Source of the DNA: a virus
Taxonomy: Duplodnaviria > Caudoviricetes
Virus record (IMG/VR): IMGVR_UViG_3300025858_000010
Coordinates: 32,001-96,000 of that record
DNA: 64,000 bases
Direction: 5' to 3' (one strand)
Under the pieces are notes generated by a model, which saw nothing but the letters and a program-made list of their open reading frames with translations, did no database searches and was not told the DNA's origin. The translations under genes were made by a program, and so were the position numbers. Shown here in pieces: positions 9 to 52,302 of the stretch (positions within the stretch are counted from its first letter, which is position 1; the number at the start of each line of letters is the position of its first letter).

Positions 9-992
9 ATGATTGAACTGGAAAAAAAAGGATATAAATGGTTAAGTGAAAAAAATCCAACTGATATAGGTTGGACAAGATATATAGAAATCATTTGGAT
101 AAATAATATTAAAAAAATTTTAACATATTCAAGTTTCATGTTTTATTTTTCAGACTTTAAATTTGAAAAAATAAAATTATTAGAATTTGAAGATGTAGAA
201 ATTGATAAAAATCATAAAATTAAGAAAATAAAAAATCTCGATCTAGATCCATATTGTGAAGAAGATTGGGGATATGTTCAAGAAAATAAAATTAATGAAT
301 TATTTGAAACTAAAAATGTATATGATTTTAAATTAATTAAAAAAAGAGATATGTTTCCTTTTGTTGATTATATATACACTTTCACTTCAAGAGATAATAT
401 TGAATATTACGTAACTCTATCTCATAATAAGGATAATGATTCTATGAGTGTTAAATTCACAGATAAAAAGAATTTTATTGGAATAAGAAATAAAATAAAA
501 GACAAATACGTTAATATGAATAATTTCGACGCTATTAATGTACTAAATACCGTAGTTAAAATATGTAAAGATTTTTATGATGAAAACAGTGATATAATCA
601 AAAAATTCACGACATCAACATTAGACGAAAAAAGATTAAGAGTATATAAATACATACTTAAAAAATATTTCAAAGATTGGGAAGTGGATTCATATATAGA
701 TCCTCGCGGAGATATAGTCATAGAATGCAAGCCAAAAATAAATGAAAAACATGAAGATGTAGATCCGTACGGCGAAGAAGAATGGGATGAACCTTATGAA
801 CCTTATGAATATGGAATAGGAGATGATGTTGTATGTGTGGATACAAGATGTTCGATGGGATTAACTGTCGGTAAAACATATAAAGTATTAGATGTCGATG
901 ATTTGACATATTCATCGACTGTGACAAAAATAATTAATGATGATGGCAAAATTGCAAATTATGTTAAAACAAGATTTAAAAAATTAAATTAA
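9..992 (+). CDS. Modular hypothetical protein with two DPYxEExW tags and a C-terminal SH3/KOW-like module; may start before the window
   Basis: LDLDPYCEEDW and DVDPYGEEEW, KINE sites, YGIGDDVVCVD...LTVGKTYKV module; frame is open to the window edge. Confidence 0.7.
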   Translation: MIELEKKGYKWLSEKNPTDIGWTRYIEIIWINNIKKILTYSSFMFYFSDFKFEKIKLLEFEDVEIDKNHKIKKIKNLDLDPYCEEDWGYVQENKINELFETKNVYDFKLIKKRDMFPFVDYIYTFTSRDNIEYYVTLSHNKDNDSMSVKFTDKKNFIGIRNKIKDKYVNMNNFDAINVLNTVVKICKDFYDENSDIIKKFTTSTLDEKRLRVYKYILKKYFKDWEVDSYIDPRGDIVIECKPKINEKHEDVDPYGEEEWDEPYEPYEYGIGDDVVCVDTRCSMGLTVGKTYKVLDVDDLTYSSTVTKIINDDGKIANYVKTRFKKLN

Positions 993-997
993 AAAAA

Positions 998-1309
998 ATG
1001 GACGGATGCTTAAACGGTGGATTTCAAGTGAAAAAAATTGATCCATCAAATGAATTAATGGTAATGAACGATTTTAATAGTAATGTTAATTTGGTTATTG
1101 ATGGTGAAATCCTGACACAAGAACAAATTTTAAATAAATATTATTATTCAAATGAAGCTTTTCAAACAATGAAAAACAATGAATTTACTGTAAATAAAGC
1201 TAAACCATTTAAAAAAGAAATAGAAATACCGGATGAACCAAAACCCTTAGAACCAGGTCAAGTTGATCCTGTTGCTTTTTTTGGCAATTCTATGAAAGGA
1301 TTGTTCTAA
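998..1309 (+). CDS. Hypothetical protein
   Basis: 103-aa ORF, ATG 5 nt after the preceding stop, same strand. Confidence 0.65.
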   Translation: MDGCLNGGFQVKKIDPSNELMVMNDFNSNVNLVIDGEILTQEQILNKYYYSNEAFQTMKNNEFTVNKAKPFKKEIEIPDEPKPLEPGQVDPVAFFGNSMKGLF

Positions 1310-1526
1310 AAATTTCTAACTGATCAATATTTATATTTTGTATCATATGATTTGCTACGAACTGATACATTATCATTACCAAAATCAATTGTTTTCGCCC
1401 ATGTTCTTGATTATTTTCTGTTGAACTCCAACATAAATCGGTATCAAAATTACCAATAATATCTTTTTGTAAATACATTAGATTCAATTCATCTACGCAA
1501 GAATAATTTGATTCCTTTACAATGGA
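1306..1526 (-). pseudogene. Remnant of a DUF1566/Lcl-like C-terminal domain
   Basis: DELNLMYLQKDIIGNF..CWSSTE, then frameshifted IDFGND..K..SVRNF*; parallels 40822..41292; no 5' half. Confidence 0.5.
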
Positions 1527-3688
1527 TTACCAAGACCCTCCTGCTCCGCCTCCACCACAAGTACCGCCGCCGAATCCGAATCCGCCGCCACCTCCGCCGA
1601 ATCCTCCTATTCCGCCTCCGAATCCGCCGCCGTATCCACTTCCAGAATGACTATTTTCTTCTCTCCTTCTTCTAGCTCTGCGTTCTTCCTCTTCTTTTCT
1701 TCTACGTTCATCTTCTTCGTTATTTTCACATCTTCTCACGATTTCTTCTAATAAATTTATCAATTCGTTTAATTTTGCGCTTATTTTTAAAACATCATCT
1801 GTTCCATTTTTGAAATCTTCATATTCTCTTATGCCATCATCAGCTAAATTTAAATCTCCTCTATTAAGATATCCGCCACTTTTATATCTTTGAATTTTAA
1901 GATATAAATCTTTATAAGTTTCTTCATTTTGATTAATATATTTTTTAGCTTGAATTATATCATTATATTTTTTAATTGGTTCGTGTATAGAACCTGATAG
2001 GGCTACCTTTTTTTCACCATATTCTTCTAATAAATTTATAGCCATTGGAAGATCATTCATAAAAATAGCTCCCATTTGATCAATATAAATTTTAAGATTA
2101 TTTATGTCATCTTCTGTAGCGTTTAGCTCGGTTTTGTATCCGAGTTCTTCTACTTTCTGATAATAAGATTTTGATTTTTTTAGATCGTTAACGAGATCCT
2201 GTTTTGCATCTTCAAATTCTTTAATTTGAAAATTAATCGTTTCTAGTCTATTTGCATATGTTTCATATTCTTTATAATGTTCTAAAACTCTGTTCATTAA
2301 ATTTTTATATCTTCTTACTGATTCATCGCTAACATCGACTTTATTAAAAGTTATTTGACTCAAAGTATCTAGAATATTTTTCGCAACATCTTGCATTTGT
2401 GTTGGTTTATTTTCATAATTATTTAGAATTCTTCCTATGTTTTCACATTTATTTTTAATTGATATTATATCTTTTTCTGCTTTTTTAATTCTGTTGAGAC
2501 TTTCTATAATTTCTAAGATGTCATTTTCGACAATATCAAGAGTTTTTTCTTTTCCTATTCTTTTGGTTTTTAATTTATCAACAGATTCTTTTAACATCGC
2601 AAGAACTTTATCATCATCGAATATTTCATCAGGACCCATCCCTCGAGATATTTCAATATCCAATCTATTTAGAACATTCTTAACTTTATCGATTCTTTCT
2701 CTCAATTTTCTTCTTTTTTTAATACTCGAATATATTAACCAAGAAATTAAACCCATTGCTAATGTCAGTAATGAAAATTGACCCAGGCCAATAAAAAATT
2801 CTTTAGTTTTTTCTTTTTCTATTTTATCGTATTTGGCATCTAAATCTTTTTTCATTTGAATTGGAATAGAACCAAATTCTTTTTTCATTCTTTCAACAAG
2901 TTCAATAAATCCTTTATCGTAATCTCCTTCTTTAAAATTTGAAGATAAACAATTTTCACCAAATCTTTTACATAAAGCATCAGGTAATAATCCTTCCATA
3001 CCATAACCCGGTTTTATAAACCATTTTCTGTCTCCCATCGAAGCCAAAATCAAAATACCATTATCGTTTCCTTTTTTACCCACTCCCCATTTATTAAACA
3101 TTGTTCTTGCATATTCCTCTGGACTGTTAAAATTGCAATTTCAACTCCAGTCAATCTCTCGTATGAAAATAATACACCATTTAATGAATCTTCAATGCTT
3201 TTTTTCATGAAATCTCCATAATCACTTATTAGTGCAATTCCATTACCATATTTAGCTGGTTGTATTTTATAAATGTCGGTACCTACTTCAGACGTCATAG
3301 AAGGACTAAACGTCCATTTATAATAAGTATCATCATCTTCACTATAACTATCACAGTTTAAATATGTAATTACTTGACCTATACTTAAATTATATCCATT
3401 TTTTTTATTAAAATCTATCAATAAATCTTTTATATCATCTTCATCTCTATTACTAACTGTTTTTTCTCTAGTTAAAATACCGGCAAATTTACCAAGTTCA
3501 ATTGAATTTTTAGGAAGACTTTTCACCCATTCTATTTTTGTTTGAGTGTCAGATGCTTGTATTTTAGGTGATACTATTCCCATATTGAGAAGTAACATAA
3601 ACGTTGCAAGCCAATTTTTCCAACTGACTTCTTCGTTTAACTTATCATTATTAATATAATGAGCGTAAGAAAGTATATATTCTCCCAT
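1527..3688 (-). pseudogene. TPM-domain (YgcG-like) membrane protein broken by a small deletion/frameshift near 3120 (ORFs 3050..3688 and 1527..3101)
   Basis: GVEIAILTV in one frame continues as EEYARTMFNKWGVGKKGNDNGILIL...GYGMEGLLPD in another; TM helix, coiled coil, Gly-rich GGGGAGGSW tail typical of the family. Confidence 0.75.
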
Positions 3689-3705
3689 TTTAATTCATTT
3701 ATTTT

Positions 3706-4281
3706 TTAATCTGTCCATTCTTCTTCACCGTAAGGATCAACGTTTTTATGTTTTTCTCTTTCTTTTAATTCCAATTCTCTATTTTTAAATGATATTACGT
3801 TTCCATTTTCCACACAATAAAAAACATCATCGTTTTCACTATATTTACTATTATAAAGGTTTTTATGAATCTCGTTTAAATAAAATACTGAATCCATCAA
3901 TGATTGCAGAATATCTTTGAATGATTTCTGATCAGTTAATTCTCTATGCACCAAAAAATCAGACAAAAATTCAAACTCATCATCAAAATCAAAATCCTCT
4001 ATATAAACTTTATATTTTGATAATCTGTAAAAATATTTGCACGCATCAAGAAAGAAAGATATTGATTTATCGTAATAATAATGATGTCTATCTTCAATTA
4101 AATTGGCCTTAAATAATCTCCTGTAAAGAAGAACGTTTTTTTTCAATTCTAAATATTTATCTATGGTTTTTTTAATTTCTCTATCTTTTAATACAGGATT
4201 ATTAATTTCTTTTTGAACCTGCGTTTTTTTATTGATTTTAAACCAATTTAAGTTTTCATTAAATGATAATAAATGTTTCAT
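3706..4281 (-). CDS. Putative virion-internal protein (capsid-targeting-like N-terminus, C-terminal DPYGEEEW tag)
   Basis: MKHLLSFNE start; ends KHKNVDPYGEEEWTD*. Confidence 0.7.
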   Translation of the reverse strand: MKHLLSFNENLNWFKINKKTQVQKEINNPVLKDREIKKTIDKYLELKKNVLLYRRLFKANLIEDRHHYYYDKSISFFLDACKYFYRLSKYKVYIEDFDFDDEFEFLSDFLVHRELTDQKSFKDILQSLMDSVFYLNEIHKNLYNSKYSENDDVFYCVENGNVISFKNRELELKEREKHKNVDPYGEEEWTD

Positions 4282-4398: not shown

Positions 4399-4806
4399 TT
4401 AATTTTCATACATATTTATATCTTCTATATTAACACTTAAAATATCACACATGTTTTGTAACGTATCATATTTCACTATTCCAAAGTTTTCAATATATCC
4501 GACTAGTTCTTTACCTTTCAAAATATTATCTACGTTTTGTACTGGATATGGATCATTAACGTATCCTATTATATCAAAATCGAAATAAAAAATATTTTCT
4601 TTTTTCGTAGCTACCACATAATAATAATCTTTCCAATTCCCTTGTCTATCATTTATTATTCTTTCCTTTTTCTTTGCTAAAAAATGACTATCTTGACCAA
4701 TCACATAAATAACATACAAATTATTATTATCTTCCCAATCCTCTTCATCATATGGATCTAAATCATTTTTAATTTCAAATATTTTAAATTTCGTAATAAT
4801 TTCCAT
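4399..4806 (-). CDS. Putative virion-internal protein with N-terminal DPYDEEDW tag
   Basis: MEIITKFKIFE-IKNDLDPYDEEDW; TTAATATATA motif just upstream. Confidence 0.7.
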   Translation of the reverse strand: MEIITKFKIFEIKNDLDPYDEEDWEDNNNLYVIYVIGQDSHFLAKKKERIINDRQGNWKDYYYVVATKKENIFYFDFDIIGYVNDPYPVQNVDNILKGKELVGYIENFGIVKYDTLQNMCDILSVNIEDINMYEN

Positions 4807-4937: not shown

Positions 4938-6818
4938 ATGAATATGAAAAGTAATAAAACTATTGGGATTGATTTAGGAACAGTGAACTCGGCTGTTGCT
5001 GTTATGGAAAATGGAGTGCCTGTTATTATTGTAAATAGTGAGGGAGAAAGAACAACACCCAGTACTGTGGGTTTTACAGATAATGATAGGAAAGTCGGTA
5101 ATCCGGCTAAAAGACAGGCTGTTATGAACAGTGAAAGGACTGTTCATTCTATTAAAAGACTTATCGGTGAAAAATTTAAAAATTTAACAAACGAAATAAA
5201 TAGATATAGTTATAAGATAGTAGAAAAACATGAAACTCCTTTTGTTAAAATTGATAACAAAGAATATTCCCCGCAAGAAATATCAGCAATTATTCTTCAA
5301 AAAATGAAGAAAACTGCTGAAGATTATCTCGGTCAAGAAGTAGAAAAAGCGGTAATTACAGTACCTGCTTGGTTTAATAATGATCAAAGACAAGCAACTA
5401 AAGAAGCAGGTGAAATTGCGGGGCTTAAAGTTGAACGTATTATAAACGAACCAACAGCTGCGGCTCTAGCCTACGGACTTGATAAATTGAAAAAAGATAT
5501 GAAAGTCGTTGTGTTCGATTTTGGAGGAGGAACATTTGATGTTTCTATTCTAGATTCTGGTGATGGTGTATTTGAAGTAAAATCTACTTGTGGTGACGTA
5601 CATCTAGGTGGTAATGATATCGATGATGTAATCATAGATTGGTTGGCTAAAGAATTTAAGAATGATAATGGTATGGATTTGAAAAAAGATCCAATGGCAT
5701 ATCAAAGATTGAAAGATGCCGCTGAAAAGGCCAAAATTGAATTATCTTCAAACACAGAAACAGAAATAAATCTTCCGTATATAACATCTGTAGATGGTGT
5801 GCCTAAGCATTTGATATATAAATTGAATAGGGCCAAATACGAACAAATTGCTGATTCTGTTTTTAAAAGACTTATTCCCATTTCTGAAAAAGCCATAAAT
5901 GACTCCGGAATTAGTAAATCGCAAATAGATGAAGTTATTCTAGTTGGTGGCTCAACTCGTATTCCAGCTGTAAGAGAAATTGTTAAAAAAATATTTGGTA
6001 AAGAACCAAATAATTCGGTTAATCCTGACGAAGCGGTATCTTGTGGTGCAGCTATAATGGGATCGATTTTATCTGGAGAAATCGACGATATTCTTTTACT
6101 TGATGTAACACCATTATCTTTGGGTATTGAAACCATGGGTGGTGTGATGACAAAACTGGTAGAAGCCAATACTACAATTCCAACTAGCAAATCTCAAATA
6201 TTCTCCACAGCATCAGATAATCAACCAGGAGTAGAAATTCACGTATTACAAGGTGAAAGACCTATGGCCAAGGATAATAAAACGTTGGGTAGATTCCACC
6301 TTGAAAATTTACCGCCAGCTCCAAGAGGAATTCCACAAATTGAAGTTTCTTTTAATATCGATGCAAATGGAATTATGGACGTTAAAGCTGTTGACAAGGC
6401 AACTGGAAAGCAACAAACAATCAGAATCGAAAATTCATCTTCAATTCCAAAGGAAGAAATAGAAAGGATGAAAGATGAAGCAAAAGAAAATGAAGAAACA
6501 GATAAAAAAGAAAAAGAAAAAATAGATAAGTTAAATCAAGCTGATGCCATGATTTTTCAGACAGAAAAACAAATTAAGGAATTATCTGAAAAATTAACAG
6601 AAGAAGATAAAAAAGATTTAAATGATATTGTAGAAAAACTAAAGGATTCTCATAAGAGTCAAAATGTAACAGATGTAGATAAATATCTATCGGAATTAAA
6701 TGAAAAATGGAATTTAATTTCAACTAGATTATATCAAGAAACATCATCTGAACAACAAGGACCAAAAGCAAAAGACGCAGATCCGGTCGAAGATGTTGAA
6801 TTTTCAGAAGTTAAATAA
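4938..6818 (+). CDS. dnaK: Hsp70 chaperone DnaK
   Basis: [57 protein letters not shown] motifs. Confidence 0.97.
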
Positions 6819-13770: not shown

Positions 13771-16700
13771 TCAGTTAACTTTATTACCTTTTGAAGTCTG
13801 TTCGATTTCTTCGTTTTCTTCGTTCTCAAAAGGTTTAGGAGTTGCCATAATTTTGACATTATCATCAAGACTTTTAACATATGTCAAAATATCTTCATAA
13901 AACTTATTTTTGGTATCTTCGACTATTGAACTTATATCCGGAGTTTCAACTTTATTTTCAATTGAAGCTGTTTCTTTAGTTTTTGCTGTTGCATTATCTG
14001 ATAATATAGATTTAATTTCATTTTTCTTTTCATCCAAAACTCTTAATGTTTCTTCTAACTTTTTATCATCAATTAATGATAAAATTAAAACGCCATTTGA
14101 GAATTTAGATAAATTTGTTAATGCTGTTGTATCTAACCTGGATAAAGATTCTCCAAAATCATTTATTGCTTTTGATAACATCCATATAGAAAAACTACCG
14201 GATATTCCCATAGATGTTATACTATTCATAGCGTCTGCTAACGTTTTAAGTCCTTCGGCTGATTCTTTAGTTGGTAAATTATCTACTAATTTTTTAATAG
14301 ATTTACTAAAATTATCTAAAGATCCACCGTCTTTGAACAAATCTTTGTAATTATCTAGTCCTTTAATGATTTTAGAGAAATCAATCATAGAATTTCCAGC
14401 ATCTTTCAATAAACTAAAATTATTATATCCAATAGAAGACAACATAGATATAGAAGATGTAAAAGATTGTATGGATTTTAAAACAGCATCAGACCATTCA
14501 GTTGGTGGATAATTTGTCCAAATAGTTTTTTCATTATCGCTAAATTGTCTTGCTGTCCACAATAATGCATTTATAGTTAAATATAGTCCTATCAAATTTC
14601 CAACGCTCATTGATGATCTATATACCATATCAATAAAAGAATTTATTGCTAAATTAACATTAGTCACCCATGTATCTGGTGGGTAATTCGTCCATATGTT
14701 AACATTATCTTTATTACTAAATTGCCTTGCTGTCCATAATAAAGAATTTATAATTAAATATAGCCCTATCAAATTATCAGTGCCTATTTCGGTTTGATTT
14801 ATATTGTTCAACACGTCAATAAAAGAATTTATTGCTAAATTAACATTAGTCACCCATGTATCTGGTGGGTAATTCGTCCATACATTAACGTTATCTTTAT
14901 TACTGAACTGTTTAGCTGTCCATAATAAAGAATTTATAATTAAATATAACCCTATCAAATTATCAGTGCCTATTTCGGTTTGATTTATATTGTTCAACAT
15001 GTCAATAAATGAATTTATTGCTAAATTAACATTAGTCACCCATGTATCTGGTGGGTAATTCGTCCATATGTTAACATTATCTTTATTGCTAAATTGTTTG
15101 GCTGTCCATAATAGAGATTTTATAATTAAATATAGCCCTATCAAATTATCAGTTCCTATTTCGGTTTGATTTATATTATTCAACATGTCAATAAATGAAT
15201 TTATTGCTAAATTGACATTAGTTACCCATGTATCTGGTGGATAATTTGACCATATATCTCCGCTATCCTCGAATTTTTCTGCAGTGTTGATCATAGCAGA
15301 TATAATACTATTCAAATTTTTGATATCCCCTTTACCAATATCCTTTTTTTCAATTTCAACTAAATATTTGAGGAATGTCCCGATAGATTTTCCAACTCCC
15401 TCAGCCCAATCACCGGTCGGATATATGCTCCATATAGTGGGATCATCACTAAAATCTTCAGCTGCGTCTATCATAGCTGAAATGGTTTTTCTCAATGTTT
15501 TAACATCACCCCTACCAATATCTTTTTTTTCAATTTCAGCTAAATATTTAACGAATGTCCCGACAGATTTTCCAACTCCTTCAGCCCAATCACCGGTCGG
15601 ATATGTGTTCCATATATCAGGATTATCATTAAATGCTTCAGCAGCATTAATCATTGAAGCTATTGTTTTTTTCAATATCTTGATATCACCCTTACCAACA
15701 TCTTCTTTCTCAATCTCAACTAAATATTTAACAAAAGTACCAATAGCCTTTCCTACTGCATCAGACCATTCTGAAGTTGGATAATTATTTACCGCTTCAT
15801 TCCAATCATATTCACCTATTATCTCAGCTGCGTCTATCATACCATAAGCCAATCTTCTTATACTCCTTGTTATATCTCTTCCTGTTATATCATTTTTGCC
15901 TAATTCAGCCAAAGGACTAGCAAAGGCGTTTATAGCTTCTCCAACTCCTTTAGACCATTCAGATGTTGGATAATTTGTTATTTTTGACCAATCAAAACCA
16001 TTTAATATATTAGCAGCTGTTATTATACCGTGACAAATATATTCTACGGCTTCTATAAAATCATCATAATCCACATCAGCTTCTTCTAAAGCGGCCAATC
16101 CCTTAGCAAACATCATAATAGCCCCACCCACTCCTTTTGACCATTCTTCATTTGGATAATTTCCAGACCAACCTACGCTACTCAGTATATCATTGGCTAC
16201 TGTCATGGCATTCGCTATTTCTATTATCTTATCTGATTGACTTTGACCAAATATAGATCCAAGGAAACTGTCTGATTCAGATAAAGCTGATAATCCTTTG
16301 GCAAATGCCATTATAGAACCACCAACTCCCTTTGCCCATTCTTCGGTTGGACCACCAGTATAATCCCCCATTGCTAATATATCAGCGACATCAACAATAG
16401 ATTGAGCAACGTATTTCATAACAAAACCGCCAATGATCACAAATGGTAATAATGATGTAAATAAAATTGTGGACATCCCGACAGCCAATAACAACGCACC
16501 AGTACCCAACGACCATTCAACCGTTGGCCCTTTTTCATAATTTCCTTGAGATAATATATTTGACACTAATACAATAATTCCCGAAACTCCTAATGTGGCT
16601 AATCCTCCAGCGACTAAAGATAATAAACCGAAAGAACCTAATATGGCCATAGTTCCAGAGAAAGCCACAATTGATAATCCTACACCAGCAGCCCATTCTA

Positions 16701-20552: not shown

Positions 20553-20691
20553 TTATATACTTAAATATTTTATTTTCAATGATCTTAAATAGTTTTTATA
20601 TTTCTTGAGTAAATCTATTATTGTTAAACATATGGATCAATATCCATCTATTTAATTGATCAAATATTCTAAAATTCATGAAATTGTTCAT
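20553..20691 (-). pseudogene. Collapsed LRR-gene remnant (paralog of 26375..27070)
   Basis: MNNFMNFRIFDQLNR / DIDPY joined directly to FNNNRFT..YKNYLRSLKIK; all repeats deleted. Confidence 0.75.
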
Positions 20692-20707
20692 TTCTAATGA
20701 CAAATTA

Positions 20708-22491: not shown

Positions 22492-22764
22492 TTAAAATTT
22501 TATTCTTGACGACTTACTATCCATTTTTTTATATTTAATTTCATCTCTTTTAATTTGTTCAATTTCATCTTTTTCGTTCCAGTTTTCTTCGCTATATGGA
22601 TCTACTTTAGAACGTTGATCGCTAATTTGTTTAGTATATTCATCTTTTAATTTTTTTGCCGATTTTTCAGATTTTCTTTTTTGTTTTTGATATTCTTCGT
22701 CAGGAGTCAATTCTTTCTTTCTTCCGAATAAATGAAATTCTTCAAAAGTTTTCATATTTTTCAT
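22492..22764 (-). CDS. Small putative virion-internal protein with DPYSEENW
   Basis: MKNMKTFEE start; KVDPYSEENW. Confidence 0.7.
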   Translation of the reverse strand: MKNMKTFEEFHLFGRKKELTPDEEYQKQKRKSEKSAKKLKDEYTKQISDQRSKVDPYSEENWNEKDEIEQIKRDEIKYKKMDSKSSRIKF

Positions 22765-34007: not shown

Positions 34008-34199
34008 TTACCACTGCTCTTCACCATAAGGATCTTCTTCGTTAATAATTATCTTTGGTAATACGTCTAACACGATTTTTTCGTCTTTAAATCTTTCTAA
34101 CCAATCAGATAATTCGTCTGATTGTAATTTCATATAATCATTATATGAATCTTGAATAACATTATCGAATGATTCGAATAATTTAAACTTGGTTATCAT
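34008..34199 (-). CDS. Mini-protein: capsid-targeting-like start plus terminal DPYGEEQW
   Basis: MITKFKLFE...INEEDPYGEEQW*. Confidence 0.7.
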   Translation of the reverse strand: MITKFKLFESFDNVIQDSYNDYMKLQSDELSDWLERFKDEKIVLDVLPKIIINEEDPYGEEQW

Positions 34200-36184: not shown

Positions 36185-36244
36185 TTTTTGTCTTTTTATT
36201 ATTTTCGACCTCACTTTGTTCAATATATACTGGAAAAAAATCTT

Positions 36245-37357
36245 ATGAAAATTTTTACAACAGATGATATCAATAACATTCTTGTTAAGTATAACAAATC
36301 TGAAAAAACTACAAGAAAAGACAAGATATGGTTTCAAAACATAGAAGGAGTTAGGAAATCTGGTATGTGTTTCAGCCTTTCACATAAAGAACTTCATGAG
36401 TATGCTAAGTGTTATAATAGTGTTCAATATTTCGCAGAAAATTATATTAAAATTATTAATGATTATGGTAAAATACGGACAATAGAATTAAGAGATTATC
36501 AAAAAGAAATTCTTGAAGAAGAATTAAATAGATTCTCTATTATTCTTAAAAGTAGACAAGTTGGTATAAACGTTACAATGTGTATATTATTCTTACATAA
36601 GATGTTGTTTGAAGATGATAAAAAAATATTAATAGTGGGTAATAAATTTCAAACGGCAAGTGAAATACTAAGTAAATTAAAAGATATTTATCTTTTATTG
36701 CCATTCTATTTAAAACAAGGAGTTTTAGTGTGGAATAAAAAATCATTGATTTTTGAAAATGGATCAAGAATAGAAACTGCTATTAGAACAAAAGAATTAC
36801 AAATTGAAGACTATGATATTTTTTACATAGATGAATTTTCTAAAATTCCTCAATATATTATTGAACCTTTTTATATGAATTTGATTAACAAAATGAAAAA
36901 AGAATCTAGACTTATCATATCGTCTATTCCTAATGGATTTAATTTATTTTATGATTTAGTTCAATGTTCAGAATTACCGTTAAATCATCCAAATAAAAAC
37001 TTATTTGTTACTAAAAGAATATATTGGTGGCAAGTTCAAGGTAGAATGGACACAAAAATGAATATATTAAATGATAAAATAAAACAATATGGTATAGACG
37101 AAGAAGTGATTATTAATCATTTAAAGAATCAAGGGATCGTTGTTTATGATAAATGTATAGATGGTAAAATGTGGTATTTTTTGAAATATGATTCTAATAA
37201 TGAAAATAGTATGATATGGAAAATAAGACAAATGAAAATAAATAATGTTCCATTAGTAGAATTGGCTGAAATAACTAATTGGAAGGAAGAAATGATTCGA
37301 TTATTAGGCAGTGAATATATATTCAGAACTGAATATGATTTATGTTTTCAATTTTAA
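36245..37357 (+). CDS. T4 gp17-like terminase ATPase paralog, degenerate Walker A, no nuclease domain
   Basis: YF..NY.KI, LRDYQ, KSRQVGIN (canonical SRQxGKT), IFYIDEF, IISSIPNGFN, ends FRTEYDLCF. Confidence 0.75.
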   Translation: MKIFTTDDINNILVKYNKSEKTTRKDKIWFQNIEGVRKSGMCFSLSHKELHEYAKCYNSVQYFAENYIKIINDYGKIRTIELRDYQKEILEEELNRFSIILKSRQVGINVTMCILFLHKMLFEDDKKILIVGNKFQTASEILSKLKDIYLLLPFYLKQGVLVWNKKSLIFENGSRIETAIRTKELQIEDYDIFYIDEFSKIPQYIIEPFYMNLINKMKKESRLIISSIPNGFNLFYDLVQCSELPLNHPNKNLFVTKRIYWWQVQGRMDTKMNILNDKIKQYGIDEEVIINHLKNQGIVVYDKCIDGKMWYFLKYDSNNENSMIWKIRQMKINNVPLVELAEITNWKEEMIRLLGSEYIFRTEYDLCFQF

Positions 37358-39418: not shown

Positions 39419-39419
39419 C

Positions 39420-39798: not shown

Positions 39799-40299
39799 TT
39801 AAATATTTTTTCTCCATATAAAATATCCGTCACGTTCGCCAACAAACATATATCCTGATATAGATGTTATTATTCTTTTTAATTCGTCTATAGTTAAAAG
39901 ATTTTCAAATGAAAATTTCAAATCATCTTTATTAACAAATGAAATTGGTTTAATATCAATACCAAATATATTTAAATTATTTGGTAAATTTGAATAAAAC
40001 TCTTTTAATGCTATATTAACAATATTATTCTTTATGATAACATCCAATTCGTTTTTTCCAAAAACAATAGATCTAAATTGAACGCGTCCATTACCTAGAA
40101 TATCACCAGTTAAATCATTAACTTTAAAAATATGTTTTTGAGGATCATCAATATCAATATAATTTTCATACGTGTTGAAAAATATTGATAATATATTTTT
40201 ATGAGCTTTTCCAGAAGGTTCAATGCCATTAACAATATCATCTATTTTTAGCCCAGGTATATTTAAACTTTCGAAAAATTTATTCCAATTTTTTACCAT
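39799..40299 (-). CDS. Putative virion-internal hypothetical protein
   Basis: MVKNWNKFFE start. Confidence 0.6.
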   Translation of the reverse strand: MVKNWNKFFESLNIPGLKIDDIVNGIEPSGKAHKNILSIFFNTYENYIDIDDPQKHIFKVNDLTGDILGNGRVQFRSIVFGKNELDVIIKNNIVNIALKEFYSNLPNNLNIFGIDIKPISFVNKDDLKFSFENLLTIDELKRIITSISGYMFVGERDGYFIWRKNI

Positions 40300-42206: not shown

Positions 42207-44504
42207 TTACTTTTCCGTATAAGGATAAACATTTTGAGCGTTTGCTGCAAATCTTTTATTTCCTTCATCGAATTGTATAGAATATTTGCCATCTGGTCTA
42301 ACTCCTATAAATATTCCTTTTTTATTATCATATACAGATTTATCTTTTTTGTATATTATTTTATCTCCTTCTTTAAATTTTGATTCTATTTTTTTAATTT
42401 CGGTTGTTTCACTTCCTTCTTTTTTTTTCATATATGGATTTTTCCAATTATTATCGCCGTTTGTCAAATAATTTTGTGTAGAAACCAAATGAAATGTGTC
42501 AAAATGATCTAATGCGTTTATACCTTGTTGATATTTTTTATCAGTATGAAGAGCACATATCATATTACTTCTATAACTATTTCCCTCTCTCGTTATCCAT
42601 CCTTCGTTAGCTGCATACATTTGAAATAAATCTCTATCTTTGTCATATCTTGTATAAACATAATCCATAAACGTTCCATCTTCAGGAACAGCCAATCTCC
42701 AAACTAAAGCTCTACCTAGAAGTTTTTTCCCATCATCGTTCAATAAAACCAACATTTGAATGACGTCTGGATTATCAACAAACATTTGCATCTCTGGGGC
42801 TTTATTTGTTCCTCTCATACAAGAACTATTTAACATTCCTCCTCCCTGAACGTAATTAGCGCCATTATACCAGTATCGTATATCTTCGCCCGATACAAGT
42901 TTTAATTTATCTGATATTCCTTTTATACACAAATCATAAGTGGCTTTATATGCGTTGGTCAGAGATTCTACATCTTTATCCGTGAGTTTTTCATTTACTA
43001 TTCTAAAAAATTTACCAATTTTCATCATTTGTCTAAATCTGGATTTGAATGGATTTTCTTTATCATCCAATCTTTTAAATTTATCTAATGGGATGTAACT
43101 GATCATTTCGTTTGTATCTGTAATATCGAAATATGATAAATTCATTAATGCAGACTTTATTTTTAAATTTAATCTATATAATATCATTGAAAGTCTATCA
43201 CTCGTTATAAATAACATAATTTCTTTATTATCTAATTTTCTTTTTATATCTTCAGATTCTTCTTTTTTAATTATACTAATATTTGCTCTTGGTAGATTAT
43301 AATAATTCTTATTTTTTCCTTGAACATATAATTGTTGACAGAATTTGATCATAAAATTTATTCCGAAATTATCTCTTGGTTTATTTCCGGCTATATTTAC
43401 AATTTCACCGATTTGACCGTCCATATTATCTAACATGAAATTTTGAGATGATTGAGCTATTATATAATCACCAACTTTATAATCATAATTAAATGATTCT
43501 ATATTATCTTTTAATAATTTTAATTCCAACTCGTTTTTCTTTAATTCTTCTTCTGTAGCACTTCTAATTTTATTTTGTGGCACCACATAACCCATAGGAA
43601 CCCCTATCAAATTATTAATGTCGTATAAATTATTATCAAATCTATTTGTAAATTGAACACTATATCTATTATAGATTCCACGTGATATAACTTCCCTAAT
43701 AATTCCAATATTATTTTTAAAATCGACATTATCATAACGTCCTTCTTCTACTACAATAATATCGTTCAACTGAAATGGTTGACCTATTTTATCCAATTCT
43801 TTTTTTACTTTATCTATTTTCTTTTTAAATTTCTCTATTTCTTCAGGTTCGGCATGTCTCATATTCATTTTATTTATAGTTATACCAGCTCCGTTTTTAG
43901 GAAATCCTTCATTATCACTTTTAAAATTTTTATCGGTTTTATCTAAGAATCCCACCCACCATTGATCTGGGCCTACAGGATAATAAGTAATGGCTATTTC
44001 ATCGTCAATGTTAATTAATTTATTATCATATCCAATTTTAATACTACCTATACCAACTATAACATCACCGATTTTATATTTTGTATTCATCCTTATGTCC
44101 TCGTTCTTCTTATTTTCTTCGTGTTTTTTGATAATTTTTTCAAAATATATTGGATCATTAGAGGCAATATTTTTTAAAGGAATATAAAAACAATGTCCTT
44201 TTTTACCAATATCTTTAAATCCAGCGTGAAATTTTTTATTTGGTTCATCAAATTCAATAAGAAAATTACCATATTCTTTCATATCTATTATTGTTCCCGC
44301 TAAATAATCCAGATTAACACCGTCAACTTCACCGTTGGTCATTATTTTATCACCAATTTTAAGATTTTCTCTTTTAATTTCAGCAATAATATTTGATTCG
44401 GTTTTCTTTTTAAACATCCCTATTTCTTCATTAATATAATTAGTCATGAAACCATTATAATTTTTTATCATTTCGTATTCATTCTTATCATTCTTATTTT
44501 TCAT
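42207..44504 (-). CDS. Multi SH3/KOW-like repeat protein with a conserved SCMR/GRALVW domain
   Basis: Five [KQ]xGD.I modules; NSSCMRG..FVDNP..GRALVW..FMDYVY. Confidence 0.6.
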   Translation of the reverse strand: MKNKNDKNEYEMIKNYNGFMTNYINEEIGMFKKKTESNIIAEIKRENLKIGDKIMTNGEVDGVNLDYLAGTIIDMKEYGNFLIEFDEPNKKFHAGFKDIGKKGHCFYIPLKNIASNDPIYFEKIIKKHEENKKNEDIRMNTKYKIGDVIVGIGSIKIGYDNKLINIDDEIAITYYPVGPDQWWVGFLDKTDKNFKSDNEGFPKNGAGITINKMNMRHAEPEEIEKFKKKIDKVKKELDKIGQPFQLNDIIVVEEGRYDNVDFKNNIGIIREVISRGIYNRYSVQFTNRFDNNLYDINNLIGVPMGYVVPQNKIRSATEEELKKNELELKLLKDNIESFNYDYKVGDYIIAQSSQNFMLDNMDGQIGEIVNIAGNKPRDNFGINFMIKFCQQLYVQGKNKNYYNLPRANISIIKKEESEDIKRKLDNKEIMLFITSDRLSMILYRLNLKIKSALMNLSYFDITDTNEMISYIPLDKFKRLDDKENPFKSRFRQMMKIGKFFRIVNEKLTDKDVESLTNAYKATYDLCIKGISDKLKLVSGEDIRYWYNGANYVQGGGMLNSSCMRGTNKAPEMQMFVDNPDVIQMLVLLNDDGKKLLGRALVWRLAVPEDGTFMDYVYTRYDKDRDLFQMYAANEGWITREGNSYRSNMICALHTDKKYQQGINALDHFDTFHLVSTQNYLTNGDNNWKNPYMKKKEGSETTEIKKIESKFKEGDKIIYKKDKSVYDNKKGIFIGVRPDGKYSIQFDEGNKRFAANAQNVYPYTEK

Positions 44505-44591: not shown

Positions 44592-44990
44592 ATGAAAGAT
44601 AAATTGATTTTTAACGATAAAATAGAAATAAGAAAATCGAAGTTACATGGTTGGGGTGTTTTTGCTAAAAGCGATATAAAATCAGGCGAGATTTTAGAAG
44701 AAGATTCTTTTTTAATAATTCCGATGTCACAGAACGAATCATCTTCAATTTTTATAGATTATAGATTCAATTTTCCAAGAACAAATTCTAAATGTCAAGT
44801 AATACCATTTGGTTTTTCTTGTTTATATAATCATTCAGAAAAACCAAACGCAGCCTGGGAAACAAATGATGAAAATAATTTATTTATTTTTTCTGCGATT
44901 AGAGACATTAAAAAGGATGAAGAAATATGTATTTATTATGGGGATATTAATTATTGGAATGAAGGAAGATCTCACACAAAAATAATTTAA
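44592..44990 (+). CDS. SET-domain protein
   Basis: HGWGVFA..DI..GE, YNHS..PN, RDIKKDEEI.I.YG. Confidence 0.9.
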   Translation: MKDKLIFNDKIEIRKSKLHGWGVFAKSDIKSGEILEEDSFLIIPMSQNESSSIFIDYRFNFPRTNSKCQVIPFGFSCLYNHSEKPNAAWETNDENNLFIFSAIRDIKKDEEICIYYGDINYWNEGRSHTKII

Positions 44991-45008: not shown

Positions 45009-47030
45009 TTAAATTTCCCAGTTTTCTTCACCATAAGGATCAATATCCATGTGTTTTAATCTATATTCTTCTTTTTTTTGTTTTATTCTTTTTTGTTCTT
45101 CTTCCCATTTTTCAAATTCATCACCGTCAGCTTTTTTTAAATGATCAAAGCTTATATTATATGATGATCTTGTGTGATCACCATATCCAGTATGTAATTG
45201 AACATTGAATCTATTATCAAATTTAACACAAGCTGAAACATCATCATTAATGCGTGTTATAATACCAATTTCACCTTTAAATAAAATATTGTCCATTCTT
45301 CCATTACATACTACCACATCACCAACATTAAAATAGTCTTTATTTTCGTATATTCTGTTTTCTCTTATCAATAATGAGTCGTCATCTTCCCAAGTTTCTT
45401 CCCCATAAGGGTCAACATCCATATGTTTTAATCTCATTTCCTCTCTAATTTTTTTTCTATATTCTATTTTTTCAGGATCGGTTAATTCTAATAAATAATA
45501 ATAAATATAGTAAGAAGAATTCGTAAAATCGATTCTGTCACAATCCCACAAGTGATTATTGAATCTTTCTGGAAATTTAACTGCCAATAATGGAGAATCA
45601 CTCATTGATAGAATAATACCCACTTCACCATTAAAATAAATATCATCCATTTGTCCGTGGCAAATAACGGAATCACCTATTTGAAAATCATTAATTTCAC
45701 TTTCATTTAAATGTTTGTAGTAATTTGAATTGTAGTCCATATCCCAATCTTCTTCACCGTAAGGATCAATATCCATGTATTTTAATCTCATTTCTTCTCG
45801 TTTCTTTCGTAGTTCAGATATCGGTTTTAATATATTTTTAGAAACAATATATGTATATCCAATACTATGAAATTTGACATCATAATGTATTCCTTTTATA
45901 ACAACTCCATTTACAGTAGAAGATGTATTATTTGAGTGTTTATCGATTATTGTGCCTATTTGACCATTTAGATCAAGACCGCTTTGATTTCCTGTACAAA
46001 TCACTTTATCTCCATTTTTAAAATCATAATCATTTTCGAAGTTCTCATTTAACCAATCTTCTTCGCCATAAGGATCAATATCCATATGTTTTAATCTTAA
46101 TTGTTTTAATCTTTCTTCTTTTCGTTTTTGTTCTTTGGGATCTAATAAATCTAAACAATCTTCTGGAAAGTAATATGAAGATTCATTTAAAAAATAATAA
46201 TTATTATCACGTTTTCTAATAGTGTAACTACGACCAATACAGTCTAACATATTCCGATCCCACCTATTTTTAACAACATGATTTTTTAATTTGTCATTAA
46301 CAACAACCCTATCTCCTATGTTAAATTTATGATTCGAATTTTCGTTAACACTTTCACTTAACCAATCTTCTTCACCATAAGGATCAATATCCATATGTTT
46401 TAATCTCCTTTCCTCTCTAATTTTTTTTCTATATTCTATTTTTTCTGGATCAGCCAATTCTAATAAATGATAATCGATATAGTAAGAAGAATTCGTAATA
46501 TCGATTCCGTTACAGTTCCATAAATGGTTATCAAATCTTTCTGGAAATTTAACTGAAGCATTGAAATGACGCAATGATATAATAATACCTATTTCACCTT
46601 TAAAATAGATATCATCCATTTGTCCGTTACAAATAACAGTATCACCTATTTGAAAATCTTCTATTTTACCTTCATTTAAATAGTGCATTGAATTGTAATC
46701 TTGATCAATCCAGTCTTCTTCACCATAAGGATCAATATCCATATGTTTTAATTTTACTTCTTCTTTTTTAATTTTTGATTCAATTTCTTTGTTTAAATTA
46801 AATAATTTTATTTCATCTTCTACGAACCATATGTTACCACAAAAATATTCAATGACTCTATAATCCGGTAATAAAAAGTTAACTAAACTAACTAAATAAT
46901 AATTTACACCATCGTGTGTATTTATTGTTTTAATTACACCAATTTTATCTACAAGATTTTGTCTTCTATGTCCTTTTTTCACTATAACGACATCGCCAAC
47001 TTTAAAATAATTTGAAAACTTTTTTATCAT
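45009..47030 (-). CDS. Six-module SH3/KOW-like polyprotein, each module ending in a K[HY]MD[IV]DPYGEExW tag
   Basis: Six F.[IVN]GD.V modules, six tags, an [LI]xE after each internal tag. Confidence 0.85.
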   Translation of the reverse strand: MIKKFSNYFKVGDVVIVKKGHRRQNLVDKIGVIKTINTHDGVNYYLVSLVNFLLPDYRVIEYFCGNIWFVEDEIKLFNLNKEIESKIKKEEVKLKHMDIDPYGEEDWIDQDYNSMHYLNEGKIEDFQIGDTVICNGQMDDIYFKGEIGIIISLRHFNASVKFPERFDNHLWNCNGIDITNSSYYIDYHLLELADPEKIEYRKKIREERRLKHMDIDPYGEEDWLSESVNENSNHKFNIGDRVVVNDKLKNHVVKNRWDRNMLDCIGRSYTIRKRDNNYYFLNESSYYFPEDCLDLLDPKEQKRKEERLKQLRLKHMDIDPYGEEDWLNENFENDYDFKNGDKVICTGNQSGLDLNGQIGTIIDKHSNNTSSTVNGVVIKGIHYDVKFHSIGYTYIVSKNILKPISELRKKREEMRLKYMDIDPYGEEDWDMDYNSNYYKHLNESEINDFQIGDSVICHGQMDDIYFNGEVGIILSMSDSPLLAVKFPERFNNHLWDCDRIDFTNSSYYIYYYLLELTDPEKIEYRKKIREEMRLKHMDVDPYGEETWEDDDSLLIRENRIYENKDYFNVGDVVVCNGRMDNILFKGEIGIITRINDDVSACVKFDNRFNVQLHTGYGDHTRSSYNISFDHLKKADGDEFEKWEEEQKRIKQKKEEYRLKHMDIDPYGEENWEI

Positions 47031-47074: not shown

Positions 47075-48139
47075 ATGGAAAAATCTGAAATAAAATTAAT
47101 AAACGGTGATATATCAACATTAATAGAAGATCAATATACTAAAATATTAAGAAGCGAAAATTATAACTTTATATTTAATAAACAAACTGGATTTTTCGTT
47201 CGTTGGGGCAAAACAAAGGAAGATGACGGTGACATAAATCTGGGTCTTCCAGAATTAGTAGACATGGAAATATCCACATCATGTCACGGTATAGATAAAC
47301 CTTGTAAATTTTGTTACAAATCAAATACTCCCAAAGGTGATTATATGTCATTTGAAACTTTTAAGAAAATATTTTCAAAACTCCCACCGAGTATAACACA
47401 ATTGGCTGCCGGTATAGGAGATATTGACGGAAATCCCGATATGTGGAAAATATTTAACTATTGTAGGGAAAATGGAGTTATTCCAAATGTGACTATTAAT
47501 GGAGCTAGAATGACGGATGAATTATTTGATAGATTAGCCTTAATGATGGGAGCTGTTGCTGTATCTTTATATGATAAGGATTTAACTTATACCGCTGTTG
47601 AAGAATTGACAAGAAGAGGATTAAAACAAACAAATATACATTTCCTGTTAAGCGAAGAAACATATGATAAAGCTATAGAAACATTGAATGATATTAAAAT
47701 TGATGATAGATTAAAACATCTTAATGCTATAGTTTTTTTATCTCTTAAAACAAAAGGAAATGCTAAAAACGGTTTCACTCAATTAGGTCAAGAAAAATTC
47801 AATAATATTGTTAAATATTCACTCGATAATAATATATCGATTGGTTTTGATAGTTGTGGAAGTACTAAGTTTTTAAAATCGATTGAAGGACATAACAATT
47901 TTAAACAAATGGAAATGTTAGTAGAAAAATGTGAAGCTTCTCTTTATTCAAGTTATATATCAGTTAGTGGACATTATTACCCTTGTAGTTTTTGTGACGG
48001 TGTAGAAAATTGGGAAGAAGGCATAGACGTTTTAAATTGTGAAGATTTTTTAAAGGATGTTTGGTTTAACGAAAAAACATTAAATTTCAAAAAGAAATTA
48101 TTAAATTGTAATCGAGATTGTCCAGTTTACATAATTTAA
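47075..48139 (+). CDS. Radical SAM protein with SPASM/twitch-like C-terminus
   Basis: CX6CX2C (CHGIDKPCKFC), PNVTING, C.....YI...G..YPCSF..C...C. Confidence 0.85.
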   Translation: MEKSEIKLINGDISTLIEDQYTKILRSENYNFIFNKQTGFFVRWGKTKEDDGDINLGLPELVDMEISTSCHGIDKPCKFCYKSNTPKGDYMSFETFKKIFSKLPPSITQLAAGIGDIDGNPDMWKIFNYCRENGVIPNVTINGARMTDELFDRLALMMGAVAVSLYDKDLTYTAVEELTRRGLKQTNIHFLLSEETYDKAIETLNDIKIDDRLKHLNAIVFLSLKTKGNAKNGFTQLGQEKFNNIVKYSLDNNISIGFDSCGSTKFLKSIEGHNNFKQMEMLVEKCEASLYSSYISVSGHYYPCSFCDGVENWEEGIDVLNCEDFLKDVWFNEKTLNFKKKLLNCNRDCPVYII

Positions 48140-48471: not shown

Positions 48472-48909
48472 ATGATTAAAAATATGAAAATAAGAAATGG
48501 ATTTGTAAGTAACAGTAGTTCGTCTAGTTATATAATTAGAAAAGAAAATTTAACAAATGAACAAATTGATATGATTAAAGATCACATTAATTATTGTTGG
48601 AAATTAATAAACGATGACAATAAAAAAATTGCTTCATTTAGGAAATTTAATGAGGACGATCCATATGGTGAGGAAGAAAACCGGAAAAATGATGAAATAA
48701 ATTATAGTAAAAAAACAACAATTGATAAATTAAAAGAAATGATGGGTGATAATACACCATATAGAATAACAAACACTGATAAATGGGATGTTATAGAAAA
48801 AGATAATGTAATTGAAACCTGTACAGATATGGACAATTTTCCTATGGATTGGTTTTTAACACAAATAGTAAAAGTAGATGAATCTGATATTATTTATAAA
48901 GAATATTAA
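48472..48909 (+). CDS. MKIRNGFVSNSSSSS-family protein with internal FRKFNE-DDPYGEE insert
   Basis: N-terminal KIRNGFVSNSSSSSY motif. Confidence 0.75.
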   Translation: MIKNMKIRNGFVSNSSSSSYIIRKENLTNEQIDMIKDHINYCWKLINDDNKKIASFRKFNEDDPYGEEENRKNDEINYSKKTTIDKLKEMMGDNTPYRITNTDKWDVIEKDNVIETCTDMDNFPMDWFLTQIVKVDESDIIYKEY

Positions 48910-48928: not shown

Positions 48929-49440
48929 ATGAAAATAAGAAACGGTTTCGTGAGTAACAGTACTATTTTTTATGCTTTTTTTTAATTTGTTTATAAGTTC
49001 ATCAATATATTCATAAGGTATAACTATTTTTCCCTTTTTTTATAGTTACTATAACCACCATGTTTTTCTTGATATAATTTTTGAATTTTATTTAAATTTG
49101 AAAAAATAAAATCTTCAACATTAAAATCTTCAGGAATCAATATCACATAAGTATTTATATGGGTGATAGTTACGAATTCTATTACACTATATCCGATATC
49201 ATGTATGATTTATCAATATGTGGAATTGATACTGGTCCAGACGAAGGTATTATAACTTTTGTCAAAGAAAGAGATTTATTAAGAAAAATTAGAAATATTA
49301 AACAATTACCGGCTAATGATATAGATGAATTAAGAGAGAAAATGAAAAAAGAAAAAGAGGAATACGTTAGAAAAAAAGAAGAAAAAAGATCACATATCAA
49401 AAAAATAGACCCATACGAAGAGGAAGATTGGGAAAAATAA
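48929..49440 (+). pseudogene. Second MKIRNGFVSNS-family gene disrupted by an internal inversion (48961..49153)
   Basis: MKIRNGFVSNST + reverse-complement YVILIPEDFNVE... + IYMGDSYEF...KIDPYEEEDWEK*. Confidence 0.75.
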
Positions 49441-50447: not shown

Positions 50448-50489
50448 ACGAAATTATATATTAATTTTTTTTTCACTTTTTTTGTTAAA

Positions 50490-51087: not shown

Positions 51088-51105
51088 AAAATTATGAAAA
51101 GTTAG

Positions 51106-51179: not shown

Positions 51180-51199
51180 ATTATTATTAAATTTTTTTT

Positions 51200-51308
51200 A
51201 AAAACCATCTTGATCTTGTTGCCAGTTCCTCGTGCGAAACGAATTCGCTGTCCTATTGGTTCTGTGCTCTCAATTTCAAGCTTTTTGGAACAAGATCAAG
51301 TGGTTTTT
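51200..51308. ncRNA. Candidate structured RNA closed by a ~23-bp terminal stem
   Basis: AAAAACCATCTTGATCTTGTTGCCA pairs with TGGAACAAGATCAAGTGGTTTTT; GC-enriched interior. Confidence 0.5.
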
Positions 51309-51317
51309 CTAATCATT

Positions 51318-51569
51318 TCACAAAGTTAAAAATAAGGCTCCCCCTGATGTAGATATACATCCTTTACATGGTTGTATAATAGAAGATTTATTTTTAATAG
51401 CTAGATCTATTATATCTATTTTTATATTTTTTGGTAAATCTTTTATTGCTTTTTTAACAATAATACTGGTTTTACTTTCTTGACCTGGGCAATTATTTTT
51501 ATCTCTAGCCGAACCAATAAATATAAGTATATTTTTATTATTATAATTTTCTAATTTTTTAATTTTCAT
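51318..51569 (-). pseudogene. 3'-truncated flavodoxin / NADPH-FMN reductase family gene
   Basis: LIFIGSAR...SKT, IIDLA, IQPCKGCISTSGG then abrupt loss of resemblance. Confidence 0.7.
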
Positions 51570-51612
51570 TTATCAACATCATTTTAAATATCTTAATCTT
51601 ATTAAATTCTCT

Positions 51613-52302
51613 TCACCATATTATCTTCATCATGTTTTTCTTTGATCCTAAATAATTTTTATATTCATCAGTAAATCTATTATTGAAACAATATAATGTT
51701 TCTAAATTCTTTAAATGTTCAATTCCATCTAAATTAGTTAATTGATTAGAATGACAATATAATTCTCTCAAATCCGTTAAATGCTCAATTCCTTCTAAAC
51801 TAGTCAATCTATTATTAGAACAATATAATCCTCTTAAATTAGTTAAATATTCGATTTCTTTTAAACTAGTTAGTAAATTATAATTACAATATAATATTTT
51901 TAAATTCGTTAAATGTTCAATTTCTTTTAAACTAGTTAGTAAATTATAATTACAATATAATATTTTTAAATTTGTTAAATGTTCAATGCCTTCTAAATTA
52001 GTTAATGAATTAAAATGACAATATAATTCTCTTAAATTCGTTAAATGTTCAATTCCCTCTAAACTAGTTAATCTATTAAATGAACAATATAAATATCTTA
52101 AATTAATTAATTGTTCAATGCCTTCTAAACTAGTTAATCCTTTATAAGAACAATCTAAAGACATTATTTGATCTAATTGTATATTTTGCTTTTTGGCTAG
52201 CCGTATTATCGGAGTATCGTTATCGTTGTCCCAATCTTCTTCACCATAAGGATCAATGTCTTGTCTACTTAATTGTTCAAATATTCTAAAATTTTTGATC
52301 AT
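51613..52302 (-). CDS. LRR protein with DPYGEEDW tag
   Basis: About 8 22-aa repeats after MIKNFRIFE..DIDPYGEEDW. Confidence 0.92.
   Translation of the reverse strand: MIKNFRIFEQLSRQDIDPYGEEDWDNDNDTPIIRLAKKQNIQLDQIMSLDCSYKGLTSLEGIEQLINLRYLYCSFNRLTSLEGIEHLTNLRELYCHFNSLTNLEGIEHLTNLKILYCNYNLLTSLKEIEHLTNLKILYCNYNLLTSLKEIEYLTNLRGLYCSNNRLTSLEGIEHLTDLRELYCHSNQLTNLDGIEHLKNLETLYCFNNRFTDEYKNYLGSKKNMMKIIW

Follow-up and report, generated by a model that had tools for sequence, protein, structure and literature searches.

Encapsulin cargo-loading peptides are short, terminal and found on diverse cargo, and they bind the inner face of an HK97-fold shell. A conserved pocket reads short acidic stretches whose last residue is hydrophobic or aromatic and which often form the extreme C-terminus, as in the SSB C-terminus (DDDIPF) and Hsp70 (EEVD). 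The internal proteins of phage T4 are highly diverse and share nothing but a conserved sequence for capsid targeting (CTS), which directs them to the scaffolding core (PMC3012670). For phiKZ and SPN3US, two reports describe many head-internal proteins whose maturation by a T4-type prohead protease takes place at short x-x-E motifs (PMC7411985, PMC5694885). Here, these systems are compared with an eight-residue peptide, DPYxEExW, which recurs on unrelated proteins of a virus (Duplodnaviria; Caudoviricetes) and is referred to below as the tag. It was analysed in a 64,000-nucleotide window, bases 32001-96000 of the 243,112-bp record IMGVR_UViG_3300025858_000010 (26% G+C; the whole record is labelled G000), and in related genomes.

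The closest known systems are the T4 CTS and the encapsulin cargo peptides, and the tag differs from them in sequence, position and apparent retention. Like the tag, the CTS (MKTYQEFIAE; on IPI-III and Alt) is a short peptide on unrelated, fast-evolving proteins, and the phage studied here has homologues of gp20, gp21 and gp23. However, the CTS is strictly N-terminal, amphipathic and removed by gp21, a description that fits this phage's own leader sequence, whereas the tag is acidic, mostly C-terminal or internal, apparently retained, and absent from sister phages that keep the leader. Even the LRR-type (leucine-rich repeat) tags, at residues 17-21, do not stand at the extreme N-terminus right after the Met, as the CTS does, and follow a separate leader instead. 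Encapsulin peptides have a hydrophobic consensus rich in Gly, Ser and Leu, in contrast to the acidic-aromatic tag, and their cargo is placed next to the shell gene, whereas the tag carriers are dispersed over the genome. As to phiKZ and SPN3US head processing, the difference is that no paper in the literature searched has a conserved portable 8-mer of the tag's kind. The SSB and Hsp70 tails each belong to one protein with many readers, while here many proteins share one tail and 60% of the copies are not C-terminal. A full-text literature search for the motif returned unrelated matches only, and the domain libraries hold no model for it. This agrees with the first-pass annotation, a model's reading of the window, which knew of no named family.

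Copies, placement and distribution of the tag

The window was searched with the tag pattern GAYCCNTAYNNNGARGARNNNTGG (DPY.EE.W), using six-frame translation and a degenerate DNA pattern. Eighteen exact matches were found, three of them on the plus strand (246, 762 and 49408) and the others on the minus strand (3715, 4735, 20480, 22096, 22579, 26302, 26987, 34011, 45018, 45390, 45744, 46053, 46362, 46710 and 52231). One more copy, at 48658, is DPYGEEEN, in which the Trp is lost. Near 20630, a frameshifted leader of the leucine-rich repeat (LRR) type, FRIFDQLNRW, is followed by MDIDPYV and a stop codon. The first-pass annotation had listed these 19 positions and this remnant and had placed all copies in the coding frame of 13 carrier open reading frames (ORFs), and each of these statements was verified. 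No match appeared in 100 dinucleotide-preserving shuffles of the window or with a reversed-pattern control. A scan of the whole 243-kb genome against shuffled proteomes, a check that had been set beforehand, gave 46-47 copies compared to none in 200 proteome shuffles and a composition-based expectation of 0.0005. Every genome copy is in frame with a long ORF, and there are no out-of-frame or intergenic copies in the genome save for one pseudogene remnant. Since 45 copies are spelled in 43 distinct ways, with synonymous changes at the D, P, Y, G and E codons, and are all in frame, the conserved entity is the peptide and not a DNA element. Selection acts at the protein level on the tag peptide, as the annotation had argued from codon variation.

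The D, P, Y, E, E and W are fixed in all 46 genome copies, and the G is present in 36. The residue preceding the tag is I, V or L in 37 of the 46, and acidic residues follow the Trp. Among the IMG/VR copies listed, the same six positions are near-invariant (at least 220 of 228), an invariance that is partly built in since these loci were picked by a pattern fixing D, P, Y, G, E, E and W. Seventeen of the 46 tags lie no more than three residues from the stop codon, which directly follows two of them (one in 34008-34199 and one elsewhere in the genome). Thirteen are found at residues 10-21, behind an N-terminal leader, and the remainder stand between modules. Because some tags end exactly at the stop codon, the motif cannot be a cleavage site only.

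An AlphaFold2 (AF2) model was made of module 6 of a 673-aa protein in the window (45009-47030, minus strand). In it, residues 25-86 form a beta-barrel and residues 89-114 a 26-residue helix; the tag follows as a coil with a predicted local distance difference test score (pLDDT) of ~57-62 and is not packed on its own SH3-like domain in this one model. Foldseek returned weak SH3-like, eL21 and PWWP rows for the module. The tag thus shows sequence and structural features of a short linear motif, which is 3-10 residues long, occurs on unrelated proteins and stays conserved amid diverging flanks: it is an 8-mer on 24 families, and in the AF2 model it is a flexible, accessible segment. These results support the earlier description of the tag as portable across unrelated folds and placed at or near termini.

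Tagged proteins account for 38 of the ~294 ORF-called proteins of the genome (13%). With the tag masked, they form 24 BLAST-distinct clusters, so the first-pass statement that they come from unrelated families holds at the BLAST level. The largest cluster consists of 12 LRR paralogs (Pfam LRR_4). The other carriers include an SH3-like module family (the 673-aa protein and two relatives), a DUF6934 protein and many small proteins of no family.

The closest record to this genome is LR756501.1 (735 kb; Al-Shayeb et al. 2020). The largest genomes of that study were placed in the Mahaphage clade, with Bacteroidetes as predicted hosts (PMC7162821). LR756501 has 105 copies of the tag on ~87 of its ~1025 ORFs, and the tag is absent from three ~640-kb sister genomes (LR756502, LR745206 and LR756504), from Lak-C1 and from the cultured Tenacibaculum phage pT24. 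IMG/VR contains at least 94 tag loci, with five large contigs carrying 18-35 copies each among the matches listed. In 185,579 bacterial and archaeal genomes, a scan found 72 single matches, which is about chance level. Approximately 18 of these are Lactobacillaceae enolase (SIEDPYGEEDW), and a small number are contigs of low GC from Bacteroidota and other bins, with ends reading ...DPYGEEDWEN, that resemble phage fragments. Because the prokaryote scan is at chance level, the tag was not borrowed from hosts; it is specific to one huge-phage lineage.

Carriers diverge much faster than their tags. Only 2 of the 38 carriers have a homologue in the tag-free LR756502, compared to 93 of the 256 other proteins (p = 5e-5), and the median identity to LR756501 is 33.5% for carriers and 60.5% for other proteins. 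Among 173 reciprocal best pairs between G000 and LR756501, nine are tagged in both genomes, three only here and one only in LR756501. The tag is therefore under strong constraint while its carriers diverge, and it is also gained and lost. The tagged set of LR756501 includes a GNAT protein, a methyltransferase, a DnaJ-type zinc module, a sheath C-terminal domain, and S77-like and gp23-like pieces. It also includes a 1179-aa polyprotein made of a dCMP deaminase, a tag, three SH3-like modules that each end in a tag, and a CCA-adding enzyme. In the window, the orthologous CCA-adding enzyme (55811-57256) is a separate gene with the leader MIKKFKLFE. The first-pass observation that no recognisable enzyme carries the tag is thus true of the window and does not extend to LR756501, given this polyprotein, the GNAT protein and the methyltransferase.

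Leader, putative cleavage site and head genes

The genome has a T4-type head module, made up of a gp23-like major capsid protein (MCP), an S77 (gp21-type) prohead protease and a gp20-like portal, and it also encodes a terminase ATPase of the T4 type. About 65 proteins of the genome (~22%) begin with a T4-CTS-like leader, M..K.F..F.E, which often ends in [LIVF]NE. This leader is found in 20 of 38 carriers compared to 45 of 256 other proteins (odds ratio 5.2, p = 8e-6). The same leader type (MKHLK..YKIFES) stands on dozens of proteins in the tag-free LR756502, and because this sister keeps the leader, leader and tag are independent signals. Examples of leader-bearing proteins in the window are encoded at 55811-57256(+), 57251-58456(-), 39799-40299(-) and 34008-34199(-), and they include the CCA-adding enzyme and a PPK2.

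T4 gp21 cleaves after (L/I)xE. In all three genomes (G000, LR756501 and LR756502), [LIVF]NE occurs in 8% of N-terminal 18-mers versus 2.5% elsewhere, a 3.3-3.8-fold difference. It is also found in 6 of 31 of the 18-residue windows directly after internal tags here and in 8 of 58 in LR756501, with odds ratios of 9 and 6 (p ~1e-4) and an enrichment of 6-15-fold. There is no such enrichment before tags. The generic site [LIVMFY]xE was rejected as a post-tag site, since its frequency after tags equals the background (0.43 vs 0.43). The first-pass annotation had put a protease-like [LIV]xE site beside the tag; the specific form [LIVF]NE is enriched there, and the generic form after tags is not. In all three genomes, tag-bearing and tag-free, the MCP retains (M/I)NE near residue 43, and the protease-scaffold protein described below has LNE, FNE and INE at its domain borders. 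By analogy with T4 gp21, we infer that the encoded gp21-type prohead protease cuts at [LIVF]NE during maturation. As the site follows internal tags and does not precede them, the predicted cleavage would leave the tag on the product.

The S77 protease carries a long acidic coiled-coil tail as a fusion, giving a protease-scaffold protein of 808 aa with a net charge of -60 (G000:127379-129805(-)). It is 81% conserved with LR756501, and its last 310 residues are missing or just 30% identical in the tag-free phage. Residues ~300-480 consist of about thirteen 14-residue repeats (SEYIAENLDKSIDY); next come a stretch rich in Q and E, a small beta domain and, at the C-terminus, a helical domain. The head-gene block contains four tagged LRR genes. 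The MCP, protease and portal genes (G000:125543-135121) have the sequence TTAATATATAA ~29 nt upstream of the start codon, as do ~80 other genes, for example 13771-18852(-) in the window. It resembles a promoter of the late type (the T4 late promoter is TATAAATA). HNH/homing-endonuclease-like ORFs of 450-650 aa form a multi-copy family (phrog_3339), with members at 30550-31887(-) in the window and at no fewer than 10 other loci of G000 (e.g. 129932-133200). Two of its copies lie between the portal and protease genes, and all match a single LR756502 locus.

Possible functions of the tag

The association of the leader and of [LIVF]NE with tags points to the head pathway. We tentatively favour the reading that the tag serves ejected accessory proteins of the head interior as a docking label, which is retained and separate from the cleavable leader, and we give this reading slightly under an even chance. 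The phage clade would graft DPYGEExW as an address label onto fast-evolving accessory proteins handled by a T4-type head-assembly pathway. Most carriers also begin with a CTS-like leader (M..K.F..F.E or ..[LIVF]NE). In multi-module proteins, the tag closes each unit, with a putative [LIVF]NE cut site ~5-15 residues further on, and cleavage of such polyproteins would give units that each consist of leader, domain, helix and tag. The processed, mature product would still bear the tag, at or close to an end. The tag may be displayed there on a flexible tip, often behind a charged helix of ~25 residues, accessible to a conserved reader. The carriers would presumably be located inside the head, and the tag would have one single reader. 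Candidates for this reader are a component of the prohead or capsid interior, or a hub met after ejection. A possible but doubtful extension is a two-signal sorting code in the LR756501 lineage, in which a shared cleavable leader and a clade-specific retained label with one reader would cover ~10% of the proteome. If true, such a code would organise a large, fast-diversifying set of head-internal or ejected effectors, a form of cargo addressing with no described counterpart.

If the tag is an address label, it would give a list of the cargo or effectors of the largest phages from sequence alone (~38 here and ~87 in the 735-kb genome, most of them family-less). The eight-residue peptide (synthetic form KHMDIDPYGEEDW) would then be a handle with which to pull down the hub and to load giant capsids with foreign proteins. 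The combination of an invariant tag with hypervariable LRR and SH3-like proteins resembles an arms-race repertoire with constant delivery, akin to the T4 internal proteins and far larger.

Several observations weigh against a docking label inside the head. The leader regex fits 22% of all proteins, a count that, read literally, would be without precedent for proteins inside a head, and start regions rich in A/U could account for part of the leader's K/N/I/F composition. [LIVF]NE closely trails only 14-30% of internal tags. Tagged genes do not form a late-promoter class, as TTAATATATAA precedes 7 of 37 of them compared to 77 of 256 other genes, with no enrichment. The carriers are acidic (median isoelectric point 5.2), unlike the basic, DNA-associated internal proteins of T4. 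The tags on metabolic enzymes and on fragments of structural proteins in LR756501 fit a cytoplasmic hub equally well. In addition, a search for the reader by phyletic filter, structure prediction and candidate families singled out none.

Another explanation, which we consider rather unlikely, is that the tag is read in the infected cell, where it would dock ejected or newly made carriers on a host or phage hub such as a chaperone, a protease or a modifying enzyme of the writer type. The carriers of LR756501, which include the CCA-adding enzyme, the dCMP deaminase, the methyltransferase, the GNAT protein and the DnaJ-type zinc module, would suit such a hub, and DnaK and a full DnaJ are encoded within the window. 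The acidic-aromatic terminal tail also resembles the SSB C-terminus and the Hsp70 EEVD, and invariance at six of eight positions is typical of enzyme recognition sites. However, DnaK, DnaJ and M16 peptidases are present in the tag-free sister too, the 72 prokaryote matches are those expected by chance, so that there is no host motif to mimic, and the association with the leader and [LIVF]NE favours the head pathway. It is improbable that the tag is an exosite for the prohead protease, by which the protease or its fused scaffold tail would bind the tag, recruit the substrate into the core and direct cleavage at a leader or [LIVF]NE site nearby. A putative cut site does lie ~5-15 residues from the tag, before it in LRR leaders or after it at the polyprotein [LIVF]NE, and the protease-scaffold conservation with LR756501 together with the loss or divergence of the last 310 residues in the tag-free phage is consistent with this idea. 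Against it, the protease-scaffold protein is itself very acidic, many C-terminal tags are 100-200 residues from any leader, and the tag-free clade processes the same kind of leader with no tag.

The tag could also have no shared reader and serve as a structural cap (the end of a helix or strand, a DP turn, an acidic helix start, a Trp clasp and perhaps a metal) that would spread by making the ends of small domains more stable. A TPR inter-repeat junction, ALELDPxxAEAW, seen in consensus TPR proteins of the PDB, has this local pattern and is resembled by the helix and tag, and (I)EDPYGEEDW is identical to the metal-site strand-loop-helix in the active site of Lactobacillaceae enolase (SIEDPYGEEDW). 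These likenesses hint that, locally, a DP turn leads into the start of an acidic helix. We rate a cap as very unlikely, since six positions are invariant over hundreds of copies in unrelated folds, which is stricter than any capping motif, the tag is limited to one clade and its fast-evolving accessory genes, and AF2 leaves it unpacked on its own domain. The per-repeat TPR scores are trivial (2.6 bits), and the likeness to TPR spans ~12 residues, compared to the 34-residue, profile-recognised helix-turn-helix of that repeat. Lastly, a DNA-level repeat, recombination joint or mobile element that is translated by chance is scarcely credible, as the synonymous variation among in-frame copies of a fixed peptide effectively refutes it.

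Several candidates for the reader were tried and rejected. About 118 proteins pass a phyletic filter for presence in G000 and LR756501 and absence from LR756502, which is too many for one reader. Four GNAT-like paralogs in the head block fail this filter, since the family has ~20 members in LR756501 and also seven in LR756502. Their fold is predicted confidently (pLDDT 91), with weak GNAT matches (E ~0.02). Complex prediction of one paralog (G000 141189-142220, 64-row alignment) with the helix and tag of the six-module 673-aa protein (residues 86-126) scored 0.00 in both runs, a score that counts neither for nor against binding. This family has ~700 metagenomic relatives and no Pfam model, and one of its domains forms residues 425-640 of a 765-aa protein in the window (42207-44504(-)). 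A PDB sequence search with the GNAT-like paralog, the 765-aa protein and G000 137139-138425 gave nothing useful. The SH3-like modules were considered as readers in cis, and AF2 does not dock the tag on its own barrel, which is weak negative evidence. LRR proteins cannot be the universal reader, as LR756501 has 105 tags and just one distant LRR protein. A TPR reader was dismissed because PF13181 and PF13432 match nothing in G000, LR756501 or LR756502, and mimicry of a host motif was dismissed on the prokaryote scan. Basic clade-specific proteins that might form a DNA-bound hub read, by sequence alone, as IF3, P-loop kinase-like and homing-endonuclease-like proteins. A 130-kb tag-bearing IMG/VR record (G003), rated 100% complete, appears to be a syntenic fragment and was of no help in narrowing the candidates. 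LR756501.1 also encodes an untagged 1013-aa protein (377493-380534(+)) with an N-terminal LRR-like part followed by ~ten SH3-like GDK(I/V)xY repeats, which could be a multivalent partner of modules of the SH3 or tag type.

Carrier proteins and other genes of the window

The first of the 13 carriers is a 369-aa protein at 9-992(+), whose ORF probably starts upstream of the window. It has a DUF6934 domain and a C-terminal SH3-like part, and both of its tags (246-269, DPYCEEDW, and 762-785) are internal. The 191-aa protein at 3706-4281(-) belongs to no family and has its tag (3715-3738) two residues from the C-terminus. At 4399-4806(-), a 135-aa protein with the leader MEIITKFKIFE carries the tag at residue 17 (4735-4758, DPYDEEDW). 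Four carriers are LRR proteins: 19667-20551(-), of 294 aa with the leader MIKDFKIFE and the tag at residue 17 (20480-20503); 25753-26373(-), of 206 aa with the tag at residue 17 (26302-26325); 26375-27070(-), of 231 aa with the tag at residue 21 (26987-27010); and 51613-52302(-), of 229 aa with the tag at residue 17 (52231-52254). The remnant described above, a broken LRR-type N-terminus, occupies 20560-20720(-).

Between these LRR genes, 21688-22476(-) encodes a 262-aa protein of no family with an internal tag at residue 120 (22096-22119, DPYGEEIW), and 22492-22764(-) encodes a 90-aa protein with the leader MKNMKTFEEF and a tag at residue 55 (22579-22602, DPYSEENW). The 63-aa mini-protein at 34008-34199(-) has the leader MITKFKLFES, and the tag forms its last eight residues (34011-34034, DPYGEEQW). 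Each of the six modules of the 673-aa protein (45009-47030(-)) is an SH3-like barrel with a charged helix and a tag (46710, 46362, 46053, 45744, 45390 and 45018), and the modules are joined by leader-like [LIV](N/R)E sites. The decayed tag at 48658 belongs to a 145-aa protein (48472-48909(+)). A 93-aa protein at 49159-49440(+) has the tag DPYEEEDW (49408-49431) two residues from its C-terminus.

Among the other genes, a full Hsp70/DnaK is encoded at 4938-6818(+) and a type I DnaJ, with J domain, zinc finger and C-terminal domain, at 53592-54629(-). A radical-SAM lysine-2,3-aminomutase-like (EpmB-like) protein is encoded at 32933-33970(+), and a truncated class II aminoacyl-tRNA synthetase paralog (EpmA-like) at G000:115016-115927(+). 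Both genes are present in LR756501 and absent from the tag-free LR756502, and no EF-P gene was found in G000, LR756501 or LR756502. The genome has two terminase-large-subunit-like genes, one in the window (36188-37357(+)) and one at G000:174415-176685(+). The window copy consists of the ATPase part only; it has no homologue in G003 by tblastn, and homologues of its flanking genes lie close together there. The window also encodes a SET-domain protein (44592-44990), a second radical-SAM protein (47075-48139) and an M16 peptidase (61394-62569).

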